Below are positions 1-11,055 of a stretch of DNA of 11,055 bases, in pieces; position 1 is the first letter of the stretch, and each line of letters opens with the position of its first letter. The notes under the pieces are model-generated. The model saw nothing but the letters and a program-made list of their open reading frames with translations, ran no database searches and was not told where the DNA came from. The stretch is from a virus (Duplodnaviria > Heunggongvirae > Uroviricota > Caudoviricetes): IMG/VR virus record IMGVR_UViG_2695420804_000018; one strand, given 5' to 3'. A program made the position numbers and the translations under genes.

Positions 1-483
1 ATGACGAAGAAAAAAGCACATAAACCTGGTTCAGCGACCATCGCGCTTAACAAGCGCGCCCGTCACGAATACTTTATCGAAGAAGAGTTCGAAGCGGGAC
101 TTGCCCTGCAAGGCTGGGAGGTTAAATCCCTGCGCGCAGGAAAAGCCAATATCAGCGACAGCTACGTCCTTCTGCGTGACGGAGAGGCATTTCTGTTTGG
201 CGCTAACATCACGCCAATGGCCGTGGCCTCCACGCATGTGGTGTGCGATCCTACCCGTACCCGCAAGTTACTTCTCAACCAGCGCGAACTGGACTCATTG
301 TACGGTCGCGTCAATCGAGAAGGCTATACCGTAGTGGCGCTCTCCCTGTACTGGAAAAATGCCTGGTGCAAAGTGAAAATCGGCGTCGCCAAAGGTAAAA
401 AACAGCACGATAAACGTTCAGATATCAAAGAACGCGAATGGCAGGTGGATAAAGCACGTATCATGAAAAACGCCCACCGTTAA
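1..483 (+). CDS. smpB: SsrA-binding protein SmpB
   Basis: 160-aa ORF ([25 protein letters not shown]...IMKNAHR) with TAA stop at 481-483; recognised from memory as enterobacterial SmpB; sits directly upstream of the tmRNA gene as in E. coli. Confidence 0.96.
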
Positions 484-646
484 ACCTGCACTCCAATTAT
501 TGACCAGTTCCTCACCGCGCCTCCCTCTCCGGCGGCGCGAATCAACATCTTATTGGCTATCACATCCGACACAAATGTTGCCATCCCATTGCTTAATCGA
601 ATAAAAATCAGGCTACATGGGTGCTAAATCTTTAACGATAACGCCA

Positions 647-683
647 TTGAGGCTGGTCATGGCGCTCATAAATCTGGTATACT
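647..683 (+). promoter_or_regulatory. putative ssrA promoter region (-10-like TATACT at 678-683)
   Basis: TATACT hexamer about 15 nt upstream of the mature tmRNA 5' end, consistent with a short 5' leader; a -35 element could not be placed with proper spacing, so this is tentative. Confidence 0.3.
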
Positions 684-697
684 TACCTTTACACATT

Positions 698-1060
698 GGG
701 GCTGATTCTGGATTCGACGGGATTTGCGAAACCCAAGGTGCATGCCGAGGGGCGGTTGGCCTCGTAAAAAGCCGCAAAAAATAGTCGCAAACGACGAAAA
801 CTACGCTTTAGCAGCTTAATAACCTGCTTAGAGCCCTCTCTCCCTAGCCTCCGCTCTTAGGACGGGGATCAAGAGAGGTCAAACCCAAAAGAGATCGCGT
901 GGAAGCCCTGCCTGGGGTTGAAGCGTTAAAACTTAATCAGGCTAGTTTGTTAGTGGCGTGTCCGTCCGCAGCTGGCAAGCGAATGTAAAGACTGACTAAG
1001 CATGTAGTACCGAGGATGTAGGAATTTCGGACGCGGGTTCAACTCCCGCCAGCTCCACCA
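698..1060 (+). ncRNA. ssrA: transfer-messenger RNA (tmRNA, 10Sa RNA), 363 nt
   Basis: Begins GGGGCTGATTCTGGATTCGACGGG and ends GGGTTCAACTCCCGCCAGCTCCACCA (tRNA-Ala-like acceptor/T-arm with encoded CCA); contains the canonical tag reading frame; matches E. coli tmRNA as I recall it. Confidence 0.97.
787..819 (+). other. tmRNA tag-peptide reading frame (ANDENYALAA + TAA)
   Basis: GCA AAC GAC GAA AAC TAC GCT TTA GCA GCT TAA read directly from the sequence; this is the SsrA degradation tag, starting at the GCA resume codon. Confidence 0.93.
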
Positions 1061-1189
1061 ATCATGATTGGACGGTGTAAGGACAACACCAACAAAAACA
1101 GGAAGTTAGCAGTCTCAGCAGGACACCGACCAGACGGTGAGGAGACAAAAAAGGATACGCAAAGGAGCCGCGGCTCTCAAGTGTGAAAG

Positions 1190-1217
1190 AAGCCCGCAAA
1201 TTGCGGGCTTTTTTATT
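1190..1217 (+). terminator. rho-independent terminator downstream of ssrA
   Basis: 8-bp stem AAGCCCGC / GCGGGCTT with a 5-nt loop, followed by TTTTATT. Confidence 0.65.
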
Positions 1218-1269
1218 GATCAGTCAACAATAAACAGTAACCGAATGAGAATTTAATAAGGATATTCAT

Positions 1270-2301
1270 ATGGAAGCTACTGTGGATTCGATTGATTTTC
1301 TGATCCGTAGTGAAGATGATTTTCTAAACTTTCTGGAAGAAATGAAAGCCCGAGAGGGGCTTGATTCTAAAGAGTTTATTTTCCCTAACGTAAAGTTTGC
1401 AGGCTGGCCATCCTTAGACATAAATGTAAAAGGAGAGCGGTATCATTCATCAATTACATCAGCAATGTTGTTTGGTATGTCAATGCTCAACGAGGAGATA
1501 CAGCGGGCGTTTGCAACCATACGATACGGATCGCAGAATCTTCAACGCTTGACTAATGAAGACAAGCAACGACTTGATATAAATTTTAAAATTAGCGAAG
1601 GTTCTAGTGATGCGGAAGGCACCACTGACAAGATCATCAACGCAGTAACTGATTTTTTGCGAGATACTATGTCTGGACTGAACGGCTGGCAGAAAATGCT
1701 TGTTATAATCACAATGGTTGGCGCGGCCAGCACATGTGGTTATCACTACATTTCAGAAAATGCCGTAACAGAAAGACATGCAACTGATCGGCAGGTTGAA
1801 ATTGCAAAAACCACATCCGATGGCATAAACAAAGCCATAGAAGCAACATTAGATTATAAAATCTATGGGAAATCAGCGATTAGCGATAAAGTTACTAGTC
1901 ACGGACAAGCAGGTAAAAGTGCTTTAGTGAAGCAATTAGCTGCTGATCCTACTGTCGAAACCGTGACTTTAGGAAATGAGAAACTAACACGACAAGACCT
2001 AAATACCTACAACAGCCGACAATCTGTAGATAGAGAACGTAAAGAACGAACTGATATATTTTCCATCAAAGGTGTAACCAGAACAGGGCCAACAAATCAG
2101 GATATTAATATTAACGTTGTTAGGGTCTCTAATGACGAATGCTTCACAATCAAAGCTTCAGCTGATGTTATCACCCAAGATGAGTTGACAGCTATTGTTG
2201 ACGCTTTGTCAAACAACTCTCATATTAAAATCAGTTACTTAGAGGTAATTGAAAAGGGTGCTGTTTCTATAGGTCAGTTCAACACTATTGTTTCAGAATA
2301 A
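1270..2301 (+). CDS. hypothetical protein, 343 aa, with a central hydrophobic segment; no family recognised
   Basis: Long ORF in AT-rich DNA (about 37% GC in the first 60 nt, counted by hand), where long open frames are unlikely by chance; AAGGA 7 nt upstream of ATG; residues ~143-161 (MLVIITMVGAASTCGYHYI) are hydrophobic; no Walker A, HEPN or other motif found by eye. Confidence 0.78.
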   Translation: MEATVDSIDFLIRSEDDFLNFLEEMKAREGLDSKEFIFPNVKFAGWPSLDINVKGERYHSSITSAMLFGMSMLNEEIQRAFATIRYGSQNLQRLTNEDKQRLDINFKISEGSSDAEGTTDKIINAVTDFLRDTMSGLNGWQKMLVIITMVGAASTCGYHYISENAVTERHATDRQVEIAKTTSDGINKAIEATLDYKIYGKSAISDKVTSHGQAGKSALVKQLAADPTVETVTLGNEKLTRQDLNTYNSRQSVDRERKERTDIFSIKGVTRTGPTNQDININVVRVSNDECFTIKASADVITQDELTAIVDALSNNSHIKISYLEVIEKGAVSIGQFNTIVSE

Positions 2302-2352
2302 TCACTTAACCCCATTTATGTCGGTTGAGGTTATAAGTCACGGAGACCAGAT

Positions 2353-2697
2353 ATGTCCTTAAAGTATGCACATGAAAAATTTCATACTGCAGTACTTACT
2401 CTTGCGGGCCATGGAAGTATTCAAGAACGCTTGATTAATTCGTATGTTTTTAGCCTTGGGCATCTTAAAACAGCCGATGATATTCCAAATGCCTTACAAA
2501 GCAGGTTCGATGAATTATGTAAGGAACTGACTAAGTTTGATGCCACTGGCGATGAGGGGCGAGTTCAAGCAACAGTATCAAAACTTAACGATTTCGAGAT
2601 CAATAAACTGATCGAAGATATTGTCAGTCTTAACGATGATATTTGCATGAAATTGGCTCTGACGGATGAGACTTACCAAGACATACACCAAAGTTAA
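2353..2697 (+). CDS. hypothetical small acidic protein, 114 aa; no family recognised
   Basis: Same strand as the upstream gene with a 51-bp gap; GGAG 7 nt upstream of ATG; same AT-rich composition; followed by a hairpin terminator. Confidence 0.7.
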   Translation: MSLKYAHEKFHTAVLTLAGHGSIQERLINSYVFSLGHLKTADDIPNALQSRFDELCKELTKFDATGDEGRVQATVSKLNDFEINKLIEDIVSLNDDICMKLALTDETYQDIHQS

Positions 2698-2724
2698 TTG
2701 ATTAAATTCAAAAAGTTAACGTTC

Positions 2725-2755
2725 AACCAGCCAGTTTTTGGCTGGTTTATTGTCT
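2725..2755. terminator. putative bidirectional hairpin terminator between convergent units
   Basis: AACCAGCCA-gtttt-TGGCTGGTT stem-loop with T-rich runs on both sides; lies between the + strand cassette and the - strand small ORF/invertase unit. Confidence 0.5.
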
Positions 2756-2781
2756 TATAATATTCTTGCTCGAATGATGCA

Positions 2782-2994
2782 CTATTTATGATGTAATCCG
2801 GACATCAGTTCATGGACAAGATTATCTCTTTCATTGTGTTGCAACCGTAAATGCATAGCAAAAAGGTGAGCACTATCCTCATTCCTCTTCAAGCCATGCT
2901 GTTCAAGATACCCGAAAAAACGGCTTCTCTTATCCGCTATTTCCTGAGTCTGACGTGCAACATTTACCAAATTTTCTAGCGTTTTTCTTGGCAT
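2782..2994 (-). CDS. small ORF downstream of invertase (first 63 codons conserved in both copies, then divergent tail); unknown function, possibly a 3'-truncated gene
   Basis: AGGAGG 8 nt upstream of ATG (reverse complement of 2995-3010); N-terminus MPRKTLENLVNVARQTQEIADKRSRFFGYLEQHGLKRNED...; the reading frame crosses the module boundary at 2807, so the C-terminus differs between copies. Confidence 0.45.
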   Translation of the reverse strand: MPRKTLENLVNVARQTQEIADKRSRFFGYLEQHGLKRNEDSAHLFAMHLRLQHNERDNLVHELMSGLHHK

Positions 2995-3192
2995 ACTATT
3001 TCCTCCTGAAATTGTTGTAATTCACTAGGATATTCATTTTAATTTGTATCATTTAGTACCAAAACCGCTATCAATTAACAAAGCCATCGTTGTGGTTTAC
3101 CTTGCAGCCGTTTTTTGTCATTGACTCTATGTGAAAATAATGAATCATCATGAGATTGGCTCACACGTTCTTGAATTCGACGAGCTGTGTCT

Positions 3193-3747
3193 TTATTTAT
3201 CTCCTGCCGGAAACCTCTGATACAAAGTCGATACGCCAACATCATAGATAATCGCAACTTTCTGGCGCGGAACTCCTGATGCAATTAATCGTCCGGCTTG
3301 TGCCCATTGTTCTGGTGTAAGTTTGGGACGACGTCCACCAATTCGTCCCTGTGCGCGAGCAGCTTCCAGTCCAGCTTTTGTTCGTTCAACAATCAGTTCT
3401 CGTTCCATTTCAGCCAGGGCCCCCATCACATGAAAGAAAAAGCGCCCCATTGGGGTACTGGTATCAATTGAATCCGTCAGACTACGAAAGTTGATGCCTC
3501 GTTCGCGCAACTCCTCCACCAGCACGACAAGATGCCGCATACTGCGCCCCAGTCGGTCCAGTTTCCAGACCACCAGCGTATCGCCTGCCGATAATGTCCT
3601 GAGCAGTTTTTTCAGTCCCGGCCTTTCGGACTTTGTACCGCTTATCTTGTCTTCAAAAATCAGCTCGCATCCTGCACAGTTCAGCGCATTACGTTGTAGA
3701 TCTGTGTTCTGGTCATTTGTTGACACACGTACATAGCCAATAAGCAT
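3193..3747 (-). CDS. site-specific DNA invertase, serine recombinase of the Gin/Hin/Pin/Cin family, 184 aa
   Basis: MLIGYVRVSTNDQNTDLQRNAL... gives the resolvase/invertase catalytic N-terminus with the active-site Ser in VRVST, plus a C-terminal HTH region (GVPRQKVAIIYDVGVSTLYQRF); start taken at MLIGY (AGGGAG upstream) rather than the upstream in-frame ATG of the ORF track; strongly resembles e14 Pin as I recall it. Confidence 0.93.
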   Translation of the reverse strand: MLIGYVRVSTNDQNTDLQRNALNCAGCELIFEDKISGTKSERPGLKKLLRTLSAGDTLVVWKLDRLGRSMRHLVVLVEELRERGINFRSLTDSIDTSTPMGRFFFHVMGALAEMERELIVERTKAGLEAARAQGRIGGRRPKLTPEQWAQAGRLIASGVPRQKVAIIYDVGVSTLYQRFPAGDK

Positions 3748-3801
3748 GGTAGATCTCCCTGACAAAAGCAGGAATGATGCCATTTGCTCGTTATTTCTGC
3801 A

Positions 3802-5557
<1,756 letters not shown>

Positions 5558-5560
5558 TCC

Positions 5561-6322
5561 ATGCATCGTATAGACACGAAAACCGCGCAGAAGGATAAGT
5601 TCGGCGCGGGTAAGAACGGTTTTACCCGTGGTAACCCCCAGACCGGCACACCTGCCACCGATCTGGATGATGACTACTTTGACATGTTGCAGGAAGAACT
5701 CTGCAGCGTGGTGGAGGCATCCGGTGCCAGCCTGGAGAAGGGGCGGCATGACCAGCTGCTTACCGCGCTTCGTGCGCTGCTGTTAAGCCGCAAGAATCCG
5801 TTTGGCGATATCAAATCTGATGGCACGGTGAAAACGGCTCTCGAAAACCTTGGTTTGGGAGAAGGTTCGGCATTACCCGTTGGTGTGCCTGTTCCGTGGC
5901 CTTCCGCCACTCCGCCAACGGGGTGGCTAAAATGTAACGGAGCAGTATTTTCTTCTGAAAAGTACCCAAATCTGGCAAAGGCTTACCCAACATTAAAATT
6001 ACCAGATTTACGCGGTGAATTTATTCGTGGCTGGGATGATGGGCGCGGGATTGACTCTGGTCGTAACTTATTATCTGCACAGAATGATGCAATTCAGAAT
6101 ATTGTTGGTTCTTTTGGGCGTACCCAGCTTTTTAGAGACGTACTTAGTTCAGGGCCATTTAGTCAACATGGGCAAGTATTATCTACAGGTCTAAAGGAAG
6201 CCGCAATTATTGAGGGTTATGGCGCTTATAACTGGACATTCGACGCATCTCGCTCAGTTCGCACAGCATCTGAAACCCGCTCCCGTAACATCGCCTTTAA
6301 TTATATTGTGAGGGCTGCATGA
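5561..6322 (+). CDS. phage tail-fibre protein: constant N-terminal domain (Sc, to about 5864) fused to variable C-terminal cassette Sv
   Basis: GGAG 6 nt upstream of ATG; [43 protein letters not shown]... is a typical tail-fibre N-terminal domain; a crossover site sits at the GLGE junction; the stop overlaps the start of the assembly gene (ATGA). Confidence 0.88.
5838..5863. other. hix/gix-like crossover site inside the tail-fibre gene (Sc/Sv junction)
   Basis: CTCTCGAAAACC-TT-GGTTTGGGAGAA; the reverse complement TTCTCCCAAACC-AA-GGTTTTCGAGAG matches hixL at about 19 of 26 positions; encodes ALENLGLGE. Confidence 0.75.
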
Positions 6323-6468
6323 TAAGTAAAGCTGTATTAAATAATGAACTCATCGCCACAAAGGCCGGAGACATTACCGTTTATAATTATGATGGTGAAA
6401 CACGGGAATATATTTCCACATCAACTGAATATCTTGCTGTGGGTGTTGGTATCCCGGCATGTTCCTGT
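5850..6468. repeat. 619-bp direct repeat (site inside half + Sv + U 5' part); partner is 9048-9666
   Basis: Offset 3198; identical ORF products (Sv and U codons 1-50). Confidence 0.85.
6319..6468 (+). pseudogene. tail-fibre assembly protein U, N-terminal 50 codons only, interrupted by pin module copy 2
   Basis: Identical to codons 1-50 of the full gene at 9517-10122; diverges at 6469 where the module begins. Confidence 0.75.
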
Positions 6469-6657
6469 AAGTTCATGGACAAGATTATCTCTTTCATTGT
6501 GTTGCAACCGTAAATGCATAGCAAAAAGGTGAGCACTATCCTCATTCCTCTTCAAGCCATGCTGTTCAAGATACCCGAAAAAACGGCTTCTCTTATCCGC
6601 TATTTCCTGAGTCTGACGTGCAACATTTACCAAATTTTCTAGCGTTTTTCTTGGCAT
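6421..6657 (-). CDS. small ORF downstream of invertase, copy 2 (same first 63 codons, different C-terminal tail)
   Basis: Same start and AGGAGG as copy 1; the tail (...TGTCRDTNTHSKIFS) comes from the reverse complement of U sequence beyond the module boundary. Confidence 0.4.
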   Translation of the reverse strand: MPRKTLENLVNVARQTQEIADKRSRFFGYLEQHGLKRNEDSAHLFAMHLRLQHNERDNLVHELTGTCRDTNTHSKIFS

Positions 6658-6855
6658 ACTATTTCCTCCTGAAATTGTTGTAATTCACTAGGATATTCAT
6701 TTTAATTTGTATCATTTAGTACCAAAACCGCTATCAATTAACAAAGCCATCGTTGTGGTTTACCTTGCAGCCGTTTTTTGTCATTGACTCTATGTGAAAA
6801 TAATGAATCATCATGAGATTGGCTCACACGTTCTTGAATTCGACGAGCTGTGTCT

Positions 6856-7410
6856 TTATTTATCTCCTGCCGGAAACCTCTGATACAAAGTCGATACGCC
6901 AACATCATAGATAATCGCAACTTTCTGGCGCGGAACTCCTGATGCAATTAATCGTCCGGCTTGTGCCCATTGTTCTGGTGTAAGTTTGGGACGACGTCCA
7001 CCAATTCGTCCCTGTGCGCGAGCAGCTTCCAGTCCAGCTTTTGTTCGTTCAACAATCAGTTCTCGTTCCATTTCAGCCAGGGCCCCCATCACATGAAAGA
7101 AAAAGCGCCCCATTGGGGTACTGGTATCAATTGAATCCGTCAGACTACGAAAGTTGATGCCTCGTTCGCGCAACTCCTCCACCAGCACGACAAGATGCCG
7201 CATACTGCGCCCCAGTCGGTCCAGTTTCCAGACCACCAGCGTATCGCCTGCCGATAATGTCCTGAGCAGTTTTTTCAGTCCCGGCCTTTCGGACTTTGTA
7301 CCGCTTATCTTGTCTTCAAAAATCAGCTCGCATCCTGCACAGTTCAGCGCATTACGTTGTAGATCTGTGTTCTGGTCATTTGTTGACACACGTACATAGC
7401 CAATAAGCAT
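6856..7410 (-). CDS. site-specific DNA invertase (Gin/Hin/Pin/Cin family), copy 2, 184 aa
   Basis: Identical to 3193-3747. Confidence 0.93.
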   Translation of the reverse strand: MLIGYVRVSTNDQNTDLQRNALNCAGCELIFEDKISGTKSERPGLKKLLRTLSAGDTLVVWKLDRLGRSMRHLVVLVEELRERGINFRSLTDSIDTSTPMGRFFFHVMGALAEMERELIVERTKAGLEAARAQGRIGGRRPKLTPEQWAQAGRLIASGVPRQKVAIIYDVGVSTLYQRFPAGDK

Positions 7411-7464
7411 GGTAGATCTCCCTGACAAAAGCAGGAATGATGCCATTTGCTCGTTATTTCTGCA

Positions 7465-7490
7465 TTTTCATAAACGTTGGTTTGGGAGAA
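7465..7490. other. hix/gix-like crossover site (invertase-proximal, copy 2)
   Basis: Same 26-bp sequence as 3802-3827; here it abuts the Sv' cassette. Confidence 0.7.
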
Positions 7491-7491
7491 G

Positions 7492-7931
7492 CGGCAAAAC
7501 GAAATGTGGGCAACGGGGAAAACCAAATCCCTGATATGTCTTTCTGGACGGTTACTGGTGGCAATGGAAATTTTGTGATTCGTCAACCTGACGGGCTAAT
7601 CATTCAGATGGTTACTGTAAGTATAAGCGGTCCAGTGGCGATGAATGGAATGACTGATAATGCTTATGCCATTACAGGTTCTAATAAGTCTTATATTGCC
7701 ACAGCCACATTGCCCTTTGTATTTCCTAATAAGGTGCTGGGCGTTATCCCTCTGGTATCAACAACAGCTTATGGTGGTGTATCCAGTAATATTACAGGTT
7801 CATACGCGACGGCGGTTTGTTCTTTTGCCGCTGTCAGGGGGAATAATACGATTGTGTTCAAAGTCGACAAACCACTGAATGCAGCCTTTCCTTCAGATAC
7901 CAGCGTCTCAGCGTTAATCATTGGACGGTAA
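7492..7931 (+). other. tail-fibre variable C-terminal cassette Sv' with no constant region upstream (silent cassette)
   Basis: Encodes [21 protein letters not shown]...ALIIGR, identical to the C-terminus of the - strand tail-fibre gene at 10540-10979; preceded by a crossover site instead of Sc. Confidence 0.7.
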
Positions 7932-7933
7932 GA

Positions 7934-8377
7934 ATGAACTCAGTATTCTTTTCACCCGCAAGTAAAAGTTTTTATCTGCAAGAATTGTTTCCAGAATATG
8001 AGGATGCGGGAACGCTTCCTGATGATGTTATTGAAATTACCAGAGAAACATATGAGCAATTTCTTGGGCTGCATCCAGAAGGGAAAGAAATTGGCGCTGA
8101 CAGTTCAGGACGGCCAATATGGATTAATTCCCCGCCGCCTTCAAAAGAGGATGAGATGCTGGCGGCTGAAATGAAAAAGATATCTTTGGTTTCAGAAGTC
8201 AATACCTACATCAATACCCATCAGTGGCCTGGCAAAGCTGCTATTGGTCGTCTGAAAGGTTACGAGCTGGAACAATATAATTTATGGCTGGATTATCTGG
8301 ACGCACTGGAACTGGTTGATACCTCCAGTGCTCCAGATATTGAATGGCCTACGCCTCCGGTAGTTCAGGCCAGATGA
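7934..8377 (+). CDS. tail-fibre assembly protein U' (alternative chaperone), 147 aa
   Basis: MNSVFFSPASKSF...; C-terminus LWLDYLDALELVDTSSAPDIEWPTPP is the conserved Tfa motif; identical to 10094-10537 on the opposite strand. Confidence 0.85.
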   Translation: MNSVFFSPASKSFYLQELFPEYEDAGTLPDDVIEITRETYEQFLGLHPEGKEIGADSSGRPIWINSPPPSKEDEMLAAEMKKISLVSEVNTYINTHQWPGKAAIGRLKGYELEQYNLWLDYLDALELVDTSSAPDIEWPTPPVVQAR

Positions 8378-8981
8378 CATCCGGCGCGGTGCTGGTATCT
8401 GTTGCAGTCACCGCGTCAATGTAATCCAGCACAGCGTTAAGCCGGGTTGTTTCTGCCTGCGTCAGCTTCCGCCCGGCCTGCAATTTCAGCTGAATCAGAC
8501 TAATGGAAGCCATAGCAGCATCAATCAGTGACTGGCGCCGTACTTCTGCCGCGTCTACTGCGGCGTTATGCTGTGCCTCAGTATCGGTCACCCATTTCTC
8601 ACCATCCCATTTATCGTATGACGTTAACGGGGCGATAGTGGTTGTATTTTCAGGACCCATCACATGAAAGAAAAAGCGCCCCATTGGGGTACTGGTATCA
8701 ATTGAATCCGTCAGACTACGAAAGTTGATGCCTCGTTCGCGCAACTCCTCCACCAGCACGACAAGATGCCGCATACTGCGCCCCAGTCGGTCCAGTTTCC
8801 AGACCACCAGCGTATCGCCTGCCGATAATGTCCTGAGCAGTTTTTTCAGTCCCGGCCTTTCGGACTTTGTACCGCTTATCTTGTCTTCAAAAATCAGCTC
8901 GCATCCTGCACAGTTCAGCGCATTACGTTGTAGATCTGTGTTCTGGTCATTTGTTGACACACGTACATAGCCAATAAGCAT
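8349..8981 (-). pseudogene. chimeric ORF: invertase codons 1-109 fused in frame to tail-fibre assembly protein U codons 101-201
   Basis: ...MGRFFFHVMG | PENTTTIAPLTSYDKWDGEKW...WPELPEA; nucleotide junction at 8655/8656 with short CAGG-type microhomology; lacks the invertase C-terminal HTH. Confidence 0.7.
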
Positions 8982-9062
8982 GGTAGATCTCCCTGACAAA
9001 AGCAGGAATGATGCCATTTGCTCGTTATTTCTGCATTTTCATAAACGTTGGTTTGGGAGAAG
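8656..9062. repeat. pin module partial copy 3 (407 bp: invertase 5' part, upstream region, crossover site)
   Basis: Identical by eye to 3422-3828 and 7085-7491. Confidence 0.88.
9036..9061. other. hix/gix-like crossover site (invertase-proximal, copy 3)
   Basis: Same sequence as 3802-3827; here it abuts the Sv cassette. Confidence 0.7.
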
Positions 9063-9520
9063 GTTCGGCATTACCCGTTGGTGTGCCTGTTCCGTGGCCT
9101 TCCGCCACTCCGCCAACGGGGTGGCTAAAATGTAACGGAGCAGTATTTTCTTCTGAAAAGTACCCAAATCTGGCAAAGGCTTACCCAACATTAAAATTAC
9201 CAGATTTACGCGGTGAATTTATTCGTGGCTGGGATGATGGGCGCGGGATTGACTCTGGTCGTAACTTATTATCTGCACAGAATGATGCAATTCAGAATAT
9301 TGTTGGTTCTTTTGGGCGTACCCAGCTTTTTAGAGACGTACTTAGTTCAGGGCCATTTAGTCAACATGGGCAAGTATTATCTACAGGTCTAAAGGAAGCC
9401 GCAATTATTGAGGGTTATGGCGCTTATAACTGGACATTCGACGCATCTCGCTCAGTTCGCACAGCATCTGAAACCCGCTCCCGTAACATCGCCTTTAATT
9501 ATATTGTGAGGGCTGCATGA
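9063..9520 (+). other. tail-fibre variable C-terminal cassette Sv, second copy, without constant region
   Basis: Identical to 5865-6322 ([21 protein letters not shown]...IVRAA). Confidence 0.7.
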
Positions 9521-10122
9521 TAAGTAAAGCTGTATTAAATAATGAACTCATCGCCACAAAGGCCGGAGACATTACCGTTTATAATTATGATGGTGAAACA
9601 CGGGAATATATTTCCACATCAACTGAATATCTTGCTGTGGGTGTTGGTATCCCGGCATGTTCCTGTTTAGATGCTCCTGGCTCATATAAAGCTGGTTATG
9701 CAATTTGCCGTTCTGCAGATTTTAACTCATGGGAATATGTGCCAGACCATCGCGGTGAAATCGTCTATAGCACCGAAACAGGAGAATCAAAAGAAATCAC
9801 ACTTCCGGGTGATTACCCTGAAAATACAACCACTATCGCCCCGTTAACGTCATACGATAAATGGGATGGTGAGAAATGGGTGACCGATACTGAGGCACAG
9901 CATAACGCCGCAGTAGACGCGGCAGAAGTACGGCGCCAGTCACTGATTGATGCTGCTATGGCTTCCATTAGTCTGATTCAGCTGAAATTGCAGGCCGGGC
10001 GGAAGCTGACGCAGGCAGAAACAACCCGGCTTAACGCTGTGCTGGATTACATTGACGCGGTGACTGCAACAGATACCAGCACCGCGCCGGATGTCATCTG
10101 GCCTGAACTACCGGAGGCGTAG
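9517..10122 (+). CDS. tail-fibre assembly protein U, full length, 201 aa
   Basis: [27 protein letters not shown]...; C-terminal Tfa motif LDYIDAVTATDTSTAPDVIWPELPE; start overlaps the Sv stop (ATGA); 3' end overlaps convergent U' by 29 bp. Confidence 0.9.
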   Translation: MISKAVLNNELIATKAGDITVYNYDGETREYISTSTEYLAVGVGIPACSCLDAPGSYKAGYAICRSADFNSWEYVPDHRGEIVYSTETGESKEITLPGDYPENTTTIAPLTSYDKWDGEKWVTDTEAQHNAAVDAAEVRRQSLIDAAMASISLIQLKLQAGRKLTQAETTRLNAVLDYIDAVTATDTSTAPDVIWPELPEA

Positions 10123-10979
10123 GCCATTCAATATCTGGAGCACTGGAGGTATCAACCAGTTCCAGTGCGTCCAGATAATCCAGCCATAAATTATATTGTT
10201 CCAGCTCGTAACCTTTCAGACGACCAATAGCAGCTTTGCCAGGCCACTGATGGGTATTGATGTAGGTATTGACTTCTGAAACCAAAGATATCTTTTTCAT
10301 TTCAGCCGCCAGCATCTCATCCTCTTTTGAAGGCGGCGGGGAATTAATCCATATTGGCCGTCCTGAACTGTCAGCGCCAATTTCTTTCCCTTCTGGATGC
10401 AGCCCAAGAAATTGCTCATATGTTTCTCTGGTAATTTCAATAACATCATCAGGAAGCGTTCCCGCATCCTCATATTCTGGAAACAATTCTTGCAGATAAA
10501 AACTTTTACTTGCGGGTGAAAAGAATACTGAGTTCATTCTTACCGTCCAATGATTAACGCTGAGACGCTGGTATCTGAAGGAAAGGCTGCATTCAGTGGT
10601 TTGTCGACTTTGAACACAATCGTATTATTCCCCCTGACAGCGGCAAAAGAACAAACCGCCGTCGCGTATGAACCTGTAATATTACTGGATACACCACCAT
10701 AAGCTGTTGTTGATACCAGAGGGATAACGCCCAGCACCTTATTAGGAAATACAAAGGGCAATGTGGCTGTGGCAATATAAGACTTATTAGAACCTGTAAT
10801 GGCATAAGCATTATCAGTCATTCCATTCATCGCCACTGGACCGCTTATACTTACAGTAACCATCTGAATGATTAGCCCGTCAGGTTGACGAATCACAAAA
10901 TTTCCATTGCCACCAGTAACCGTCCAGAAAGACATATCAGGGATTTGGTTTTCCCCGTTGCCCACATTTCGTTTTGCCG
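9816..10979. repeat. right arm of the 1164-bp inverted repeat
   Basis: Reverse complement of 7492-8655. Confidence 0.85.
10094..10537 (-). CDS. tail-fibre assembly protein U', 147 aa
   Basis: Reverse-complement copy of 7934-8377; lies downstream of the - strand tail-fibre gene. Confidence 0.88.
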   Translation of the reverse strand: MNSVFFSPASKSFYLQELFPEYEDAGTLPDDVIEITRETYEQFLGLHPEGKEIGADSSGRPIWINSPPPSKEDEMLAAEMKKISLVSEVNTYINTHQWPGKAAIGRLKGYELEQYNLWLDYLDALELVDTSSAPDIEWPTPPVVQAR

Positions 10980-11055
10980 CTTCTCCCAAACCAAGGTTTT
11001 CGAGAGCCGTTTTCACCGTGCCATCAGATTTGATATCGCCAAACGGATTCTTGCG
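10540..11055 (-). CDS. phage tail-fibre protein (Sc + Sv'), 5' end beyond the window edge
   Basis: C-terminal Sv' cassette joined through a crossover site to the same constant-region sequence as 5789-5864 (...[21 protein letters not shown]); the ATG at 11016 in the ORF track is internal. Confidence 0.85.
10981..11006. other. hix/gix-like crossover site in inverted orientation (Sc/Sv' junction of the - strand gene)
   Basis: TTCTCCCAAACC-AA-GGTTTTCGAGAG, the exact reverse complement of the site at 5838-5863. Confidence 0.75.

Follow-up and report, generated by a model that had tools for sequence, protein, structure and literature searches.

The window analysed here is an 11,055-nt stretch of viral DNA (Caudoviricetes; IMG/VR record IMGVR_UViG_2695420804_000018) that carries, between the transfer-messenger RNA (tmRNA) gene ssrA and a phage invertase gene, a small AT-rich cassette. 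Its first gene, P1 (1270–2301, + strand; 343 amino acids (aa), WP_021530618.1), is the candidate active component. To judge from homology searches, P1 is a horizontally mobile prophage accessory gene, or moron, and a member of a large, unnamed, phage-borne family whose members occur as solo genes. P1 is followed by P2 (2353–2697, +; 114 aa, WP_000054185.1), an acidic orphan, and by a gene for a basic orphan of 70 aa (2782–2994, −; WP_001137529.1). The best explanation of the evidence as a whole, which we hold tentatively, is that P1 acts alone as a membrane-anchored prophage exclusion protein that would block phage entry. P1 is thus presented as a candidate for a new prophage-exclusion family, not as a demonstrated system.

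Database searches and extent of the P1 family

None of the three cassette proteins gave a significant match to Pfam (2025 copy), NCBIfam (2026), PADLOC-DB 2.0.0 (2023) or the sequences of the PDB (2026), in agreement with the initial annotation, made from the letters of the window alone, in which neither P1 nor P2 had been recognised. Marginal matches to DUF3861, GrpE, lmo0673 and AlgK all fell far under their cut-offs and were rejected. As controls, genes that occupy the equivalent position in other strains were readily detected by PADLOC (mcrA, E 6e-203; PD-T4-3, E 2e-140). P1 did match PHROG 6191, a family listed as of unknown function, over its full length (E 6.8e-38; residues 7–340 on profile positions 5–331 of 338). 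Neither the accessions of P1 and P2 nor PHROG 6191 were mentioned in any paper found; the phi458 paper does not discuss the P1 homologue of that phage, and the reports on HepS (PMC13043305) and on a lambdoid Chi hotspot (PMC12315714) were checked and do not describe the family.

A word-indexed search with P1 returned 76 clusters at 90% identity, all from Enterobacterales and all annotated as hypothetical, and homologues with 35–82% identity were present in many genera. An exhaustive profile search extended the family to 831 representatives at 50% identity (E ≤ 1e-3), of which 480 were found at E ≤ 1e-10. These are mostly proteins of 320–350 aa from Gammaproteobacteria, matched over their full length, and none is named; the sampled members came from Pseudoalteromonas, Methylococcales, Pseudomonas, Aeromonas, Pantoea, Pasteurellaceae and Oceanimonas. 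Seventy diverse members gave no consistent Pfam or PADLOC match. The GenBank label ‘T2SS GspM containing protein’, attached to the homologue in PhiR12, was reproduced by Pfam in 0 of the 70 and was set aside as an annotation artefact.

Genomic context of P1 and its homologues

The comparison of gene neighbourhoods that the initial annotation had proposed placed P1 homologues downstream of the repressor gene cI, in the slot of HK97 gene 15 and at prophage ends close to the attachment site. In phage phi458 (46% identity) the homologue immediately follows cI on the same strand, with a gap of 25 bp, and precedes N. In PhiR12_1 to PhiR12_5 (26% identity) it is found between cI and N, co-oriented with cI, and in the prophages with homologues P0008 (65%) and P0010 (47%) it is likewise located just downstream of cI. 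Twenty-eight loci, drawn from IMG/VR contigs and other fetched loci, could be scored; an open reading frame (ORF) with HTH_3 and Peptidase_S24 domains was immediately upstream of the homologue in 15, and N was downstream in 6. These upstream repressors were 20–99% identical to each other, indicating that the linkage spans many immunity types. The cI–N slot is the position of rexA/rexB in lambda, and the slot of bstA downstream of cI in BTP1 has been described as a hotspot whose genes probably share the repressor's promoter (PMC8585504).

Other branches of the family occupy other positions. A 36%-identical branch sits between the tail chaperone and tape measure genes, which is the slot of HK97 gene 15; its product, gp15, is the archetypal moron product and an inner-membrane superinfection-exclusion protein (PMC3594210). 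The tail-module insertion that carries a P1 homologue in Klebsiella (L011–L013) also contains a convergent 157-aa ORF (9104–9577, − strand; no Pfam domain on record, no PADLOC match), and this layout of a large gene with a convergent small orphan is also that of the window. A 43%-identical Enterobacter branch lies at a prophage end beyond the tail fibres, adjoining tRNA-Pro. The closest relative, an 82%-identical protein of Cronobacter, is encoded just after the ssrA trailer, as P1 is in the window, and the DNA similarity between the two loci runs from the 3′ end of ssrA to exactly the stop codon of P1. About 1.1 kb downstream of the Cronobacter homologue is a second 343-aa ORF (10157–11188 in L005; also in L004 and L006) with a Lys/Glu-rich N terminus, several hydrophobic stretches and no Pfam match; it has no similarity to P1 and was rejected as a relative. 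A 23-aa fragment of DUF4113 (UmuC C-terminal) lies between the two.

At one Pasteurellaceae locus (L088) the nearest large ORF upstream of the P1 homologue, at a distance of 1.4 kb, encodes a 615-aa AAA_15/AAA_21 ATPase (781–2628) with PADLOC matches to PtuA, GajA and AriA-type models at E values as low as 3e-18, suggestive of a small defence cluster. A query with the Aeromonas P1 homologue found no viral contigs.

The window's own copy of P1 fills yet another position, the slot beyond the invertase gene pinE. The initial annotation had drawn an analogy with mcrA of the e14 prophage, and the comparison bears this out. Beyond pinE, K-12-type e14 carries mcrA and then an icd fragment, the soil isolate MEI4O1-23 carries a GIY-YIG gene annotated as ‘LEM-3-like’, GCEC19 carries nothing, and the window carries the 70-aa gene, P2 and P1. 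In O157:H7 the slot is occupied by PD-T4-3, which, from the name of the PADLOC model, we take to be a GIY-YIG system. The PD-T4-n names originate from the functional screen of Vassallo et al., in which a GIY-YIG nuclease was among the validated systems and the importance of prophage hotspots was stressed (PMC9519451). With mcrA, PD-T4-3 or the window genes at the same site, the region beyond pinE is a small hotspot for cargo, some of it validated defence genes. The cassette shares with McrA and PD-T4-3 its place at the invertase end of related tail-fibre modules; McrA (type IV restriction) and PD-T4-3 (GIY-YIG) are nucleases, whereas no domain, nuclease or other, could be recognised in P1, P2 or the 70-aa protein.

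Several features point to a moron. The P1 family is disseminated over the cI–N slot, the tail-module slot, attachment site-proximal ends and the early region of Pasteurellaceae phages. The G+C content of the cassette is 0.36–0.44 (1201–3150), compared with 0.48–0.54 in the flanking smpB–ssrA DNA. The cassette also has a terminator of its own: a hairpin with a stem of 9–10 bp (2725–2747; about −15 kcal/mol in either strand) lies between the convergent P2 and 70-aa genes, is followed by a U-rich tract and is likely to be a bidirectional terminator.

Predicted architecture of P1

The structure of P1 was predicted with AlphaFold2 from a 70-sequence alignment (mean predicted local distance difference test score (pLDDT) 84.6; predicted template modelling score (pTM) 0.71), with low confidence only at aa 157–182. 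This deep-alignment model replaced one made from the close family (pLDDT 62.8). The model begins with an alpha/beta domain (aa 1–138; isoelectric point (pI) 4.6), which is the most conserved part of the protein and in which superfamily members share 29% identity with the window protein. A single uncharged hydrophobic helix, MLVIITMVGAASTCGYHYI (aa ~139–162; 1684–1755, +), follows as the predicted membrane anchor. It leads into a linker and helical hairpin (aa 163–228; 1756–1953, +; hairpin at aa 173–225; 12% identity across the superfamily) and then into a C-terminal beta-rich domain with an OB-fold (1954–2298, +; OB core at aa ~250–343; 17% identity). Variation between members is greater in the C-terminal half than in the N-terminal domain.

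The hydrophobic segment is a constant feature. Its 19-mer has a mean Kyte-Doolittle value of 1.86 in the close family, where 33 of 34 members reach at least 1.6; in the wide superfamily the mean is 1.71, the segment is at the same position in 69 of 70 members and 47 reach 1.6. A second hydrophobic segment was present in none of the 70. The natural reading of these sequences is that P1 is a bitopic membrane protein. Because it has no signal peptide and the helix is preceded by a 138-aa domain, an N-in/C-out topology is the likelier one.

The OB domain is acidic (pI 5.0, net charge −4; family median pI 5.1), and OB proteins that are periplasmic or secreted, such as SilF, toxin B subunits and YgiW, are among the structures that match it best. 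A Foldseek search of BFVD with P1 gave no match at E < 1e-3, and no conserved catalytic-type residues were found across the superfamily.

The cassette in Escherichia coli and the status of P2

The two co-oriented ORFs of the initial annotation, with their coordinates, ribosome-binding sites, closing hairpin and AT-rich DNA, were all recovered. Shine-Dalgarno sequences are present 7 nt before each ATG (AAGGA for P1, GGAG for P2), and the genes are separated by 51 bp. Of 5,426 complete E. coli genomes, 46 carry the P1–P2 cassette, in every case in full and with 99.6% identity or more. In 45 of these the 70-aa/pin stretch was also complete, and the set of pin, 70-aa gene, P2 and P1 was unvarying in 10 of 10 distinct places. 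Three alleles of the P1 family occur sporadically in the species (46, 18 and 5 of the 5,426 genomes). Among 11 E. coli copies P1 had accumulated 5 synonymous and 2 non-synonymous substitutions (p ~0.013, a binomial estimate that assumes one quarter of random changes to be synonymous), and the protein was identical in copies that differed at up to 7 DNA positions over 1061–2800 of the window. The substitution pattern and the identity of the protein across diverged copies argue against pure decay.

P2 is probably a coding gene: an ORF of at least 114 aa arose in only 12 of 2,000 (0.6%) dinucleotide-preserving shuffles of 2302–2781, only the annotated frame scored positive under a codon model trained on P1 (with GC1 > GC2), and the E. 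coli copies, one of lower quality aside, showed two synonymous and zero non-synonymous substitutions. Its distribution is very narrow. Only 6 clusters among 5.8 billion contained P2, all of them variants of the cassette locus, and apparent homologues at 84–86% identity proved to be frameshift variants of one 99.2%-identical DNA. Contig L014, which had seemed to pair P2 with other upstream genes, was the same cassette at 99.2% identity with frameshifts. No relative of P2 was found beside any other P1 homologue examined (L002–L013, L015–L017, L024–L063), where the downstream neighbours are heterogeneous.

The 70-aa protein was restricted to 3 clusters among the 5.8 billion, all from the cassette locus. 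It has a pI of 9.4, its gene has a near-perfect Shine-Dalgarno sequence (AGGAGG), and it was always alongside pin, P2 and P1. The gene is repeated in altered form at 6421–6657 of the window. The protein is indexed in 4,933 blocks of the assembly collection, one record of which is labelled Salmonella Derby. On this distribution P2 and the 70-aa gene are lineage-specific orphans travelling with the window copy of P1.

These results change the picture of a two-gene cassette drawn in the initial annotation. Accessory cargo at a prophage end was confirmed, and the block also contains the convergent 70-aa gene. P2 is indeed a small acidic protein beside a large one, but P1 is as acidic as P2 (pI 5.06 and 4.91, respectively). 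The suggested toxin/immunity or two-gene abortive-infection (Abi) layout is not supported, since P2 is confined to the cassette and the similarity to Cronobacter stops where P1 does. The constant linkage of P1 and P2 in E. coli is attributed to one recent acquisition, given the near-identity of the copies, and not to a conserved partnership.

Proposed function of P1 and alternative explanations

In the explanation that we favour, the functional unit would be P1 alone, acting as a prophage accessory gene. P1 would be made in lysogens and, as the close, co-oriented spacing after cI suggests, together with cI in lambdoid ones. The protein would be anchored in the inner membrane, with its N-terminal domain probably cytoplasmic and its OB-fold probably periplasmic according to the predicted topology. 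The stalk and OB module would bind the genome-delivery apparatus of the incoming phage (tape measure, tail tip or ejection proteins) or its docking site at the inner membrane, and this binding would stop DNA entry in the manner of HK97 gp15 and P22 SieA. An anti-phage role of any kind appears evenly balanced, and the specific mechanism of an entry block is possible but doubtful. In a variant of the Abi explanation given below, which is distinctly unlikely, the periplasmic OB module would sense the incoming tail and signal through the cytoplasmic N-terminal domain. This outside-in sensor was kept in consideration because the strong conservation of the N-terminal domain is easier to understand if that domain signals or acts as an effector than if P1 is a passive blocker. 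The defence or exclusion candidate put forward in the initial annotation therefore survives for P1, whose homologues lie in classic exclusion-gene slots, but not as a two-gene system.

Known exclusion proteins resemble P1 in part. HK97 gp15 shares the slot of one P1 branch and is the product of an AT-rich moron with a terminator, a membrane protein without enzymatic motifs (PMC3594210); it is a YebO-like protein of 62 aa, whereas P1 has 343 aa and two globular domains. P22 SieA, like the proposed P1, is a prophage inner-membrane protein that interferes with the genome-delivery conduit (PMC10883804), but it has another genome position, and in the PHROG, Pfam and PADLOC libraries, by which the two were compared, nothing links it to P1. 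BstA of prophage BTP1 is a single-gene prophage accessory protein in the slot downstream of cI, as many P1 homologues are. It is found, however, where phage DNA is being replicated (PMC8585504), unlike P1 with its predicted membrane anchor, and neither PADLOC nor Pfam connects the two. RexA/RexB of lambda occupy the same co-oriented slot downstream of cI as enterobacterial P1 homologues, and both systems involve a membrane component, a predicted one in the case of P1. Unlike P1, however, they are two genes, RexB is multi-spanning where P1 has one hydrophobic helix, and their slot is not where the window's own copy lies, next to ssrA and pin. When the 70-sequence P1 profile was aligned with hhalign, the probabilities were 0.3% for RexA, 0.6% for RexB and 1.2% for gp15, indicating that P1 belongs to none of these families, and no Rex match was found with PADLOC or PHROG.

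A number of observations weigh against the proposed exclusion role. The positive-inside bias expected for N-in/C-out is clear in the close P1 family only and vanishes in the wide superfamily, for which reason the positive-inside rule was not relied on. The pTM of 0.71 may reflect packing of the two terminal domains against each other, an arrangement that would be at odds with a helix crossing the membrane between them. Conservation in P1 is highest in the N-terminal domain, putatively cytoplasmic, for which a protein that simply blocks entry from the periplasm would have no need. Position is a weak guide to function, as the same slots also carry non-defence morons. The homologue in Pasteurellaceae phages lies among early genes and antirepressors, and that in Pseudomonas near a genome end, neither beside a repressor; at the loci compared, the family is phage-borne throughout, with the cI linkage a trait of its enterobacterial lambdoid branch. 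The window copy may not be expressed, as it lies in a decayed prophage with the strong ssrA terminator directly upstream and no recognisable promoter: the stretch from that terminator to P1 contains no site with 9 or more of the 12 sigma-70 consensus bases. In some assemblies (L014, L026, L075) the P1 gene carries frameshifts or is split. Finally, the PADLOC release used dates from 2023, and newer defence catalogues could already list the P1 family.

Two other explanations make P1 a single active protein with a different role. The more probable of them, although rather unlikely, is that P1 is a lysogenic-conversion or life-cycle gene: an envelope or virulence factor, a stress membrane protein or a modulator of the lysis-lysogeny decision or of induction. 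Such modulation has also been ascribed to RexAB. No P1-family member matches any defence model, the setting in Pasteurellaceae phages just described would suit a life-cycle gene, and moron slots hold many non-defence genes, such as lom and sopE (PMC3594210). The GspM label would add an envelope-type hint, but Pfam does not reproduce it. Against this explanation, three independent slot types of the family are each documented for exclusion genes, and the variable C-terminal half together with the sporadic, allele-rich distribution fits an arms-race gene better than a non-defence gene. Alternatively, and this is unlikely, P1 would be an Abi protein that senses infection and collapses membrane integrity or potential in the way of RexAB, AbiP or PdpSau. 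The cI–N slot houses the Abi systems RexAB and BstA (PMC8585504), and the high conservation of the N-terminal domain is what would be expected of an effector or signalling module. AbiP of Lactococcus and PdpSau of Staphylococcus aureus prophages are, like P1, single proteins of mobile elements or prophages that combine a membrane helix with an OB-fold, and they act by Abi with membrane depolarisation (PMC10127798). Their anchor, however, is N-terminal and their OB-fold is cytoplasmic and basic, as fits nucleic-acid binding (PMC10127798), whereas P1, which was compared with them by description only, has a central anchor (aa ~139–162), an extra N-terminal domain of 138 aa and an acidic OB domain. 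The one hydrophobic segment of P1 provides no pore-forming or multi-transmembrane element, and the hhalign values speak against homology to RexA or RexB.

The remaining two explanations concern the cassette as a whole. The first, which is very improbable, is a multi-gene toxin/immunity or Abi system made up of P1, P2 and perhaps the 70-aa gene, with P2 neutralising or regulating P1. It draws on the invariable co-occurrence in E. coli (P1 with P2 in 46 of 46 genomes, the 70-aa/pin stretch in 45, the whole set in all 10 places), on the short intergenic gap and common terminator, and on P2 being probably coding with a codon usage shared with P1. The linkage is explained by one recent acquisition, however, P2 and the 70-aa protein are orphans with no P2 relative and only heterogeneous neighbours at the other P1 loci examined, and P1 stands alone in hundreds of lineages, which argues that it is not a toxin requiring P2 as antidote. 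Hardly probable at all is the view that the cassette is inert cargo of a dead prophage whose genes are intact only through recent acquisition. The prophage is reduced to a tail-fibre and invertase remnant with an IS3 insertion, and both the lack of a detected promoter and the broken copies would be expected under this view; the excess of synonymous changes in P1, the unchanged protein in diverged copies and the conservation of the family across Gammaproteobacteria speak against it.

Borders of the accessory block and layout of the window

The window starts with smpB (1–483), followed by ssrA (698–1060, +; identified by ARAGORN with the tag ANDENYALAA and annotated in RefSeq), which is context outside the cassette. 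Next come the cassette, pinE and tail-fibre genes, the arrangement between tmRNA gene and invertase/tail-fibre block that the initial annotation had given. The left border of the accessory block is the ssrA trailer (1061–1220, +), a core-type sequence that ends in a hairpin terminator (1186–1214, −19.3 kcal/mol in the fold, then U6). This trailer was found at 88–95% identity in 4,170 of the 5,426 complete E. coli genomes, is directly followed by ypjA in a K-12-type strain, and is conserved at a similar level in Cronobacter. The approximately 160 nt of the trailer are better conserved than the neighbouring P1 gene, and where islands have inserted at ssrA the trailer lies at their far end, as it does behind ypjF in a K-12-type strain. 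On the right, similarity to the pin regions of other E. coli starts only at about 3164–3191. With the trailer conserved on one side and pin similarity beginning on the other, the strain-specific cargo is approximately 1221–3163 and consists of three genes, P1, P2 and the convergent 70-aa gene. The island edge at ssrA that had been proposed was not upheld: accessory DNA starts at about 1221, after the ssrA trailer and terminator, and not at the attachment core or 3′ end of ssrA.

The right border is pinE (3193–3747, −; RefSeq). A search for repeats in the window identified an invertase crossover-type repeat, AAACGTTGGTTTGGGAGAAG, at 3809–3828, with four direct copies in the window and one inverted copy at 10980–10999. 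Positions 1–3828 match the chromosome of strain 602687 collinearly and with 100% identity. RefSeq there labels the products of all three cassette genes, that of the convergent 70-aa gene included, as hypothetical proteins and places pinE before a tail-fibre/ymfQ remnant interrupted by IS3. The rest of the window (3829–11055) is a patchwork of that same locus, with three full or partial pinE copies (3193–3783, 6856–7446 and 8349–9017) and with tail-fibre blocks that are inverted and repeated. Each junction between blocks (3829, 6469 and 8655) consists of a single ‘A’; the junctions lie within IS3, tfaE, the 70-aa gene and pinE, not at invertase sites, and yield chimeric ORFs such as a pin::tfa fusion at 8349–9017. 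The region right of 3828 looks like misassembly or artificial joining rather than biology.

Rearranged forms of the locus were seen elsewhere. A 2,637-bp RefSeq ‘circular plasmid’ (NZ_CP148395.1, L018) corresponds to 1177–3813 of the window and contains exactly pinE, the 70-aa gene, P2 and P1; the 2,676-bp Logan contig L014 has nearly the same limits. That NZ_CP148395.1 is an excised circle was considered and set aside. It is probably an assembly-graph artefact, because one of its ends lies immediately left of the hairpin in the ssrA trailer and the other within the invertase crossover repeat. In some genomes (L073, L077, L082; also L004–L006) ssrA-integrating elements lie between ssrA and the cassette, among them an integrase-bearing island, a P4-like primase element, CP4-57-like islands and a 186-like prophage, which shows tandem accretion at the ssrA site with the cassette always remaining distal. 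In CP123010.1 (L079, 1–3802) the pinE end of the cassette adjoins glycolysis genes (Pfam Gp_dh, PGK and F_bP_aldolase) and not tail fibres, suggesting that the invertase region was a breakpoint in a large rearrangement.

Implications

Prophage exclusion genes shape which phages can infect a strain and are relevant to phage therapy and to horizontal gene flow. The cI–N slot has been studied for more than sixty years through rexAB; to our knowledge, most of the lambdoid cargo in it is unnamed. The P1 family ties 831 representatives, whose hosts include marine Gammaproteobacteria, to this slot and to those of HK97 gene 15 and of mcrA/PD-T4-3. If the family does exclude phages, it would constitute a new membrane-level defence family, and phi458 and the PhiR12 phages, cultured and inducible in E. 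coli, would be a ready experimental system. If its role is not anti-phage, P1 would still represent one of the larger uncharacterised lysogeny-associated families of enterobacterial phages.

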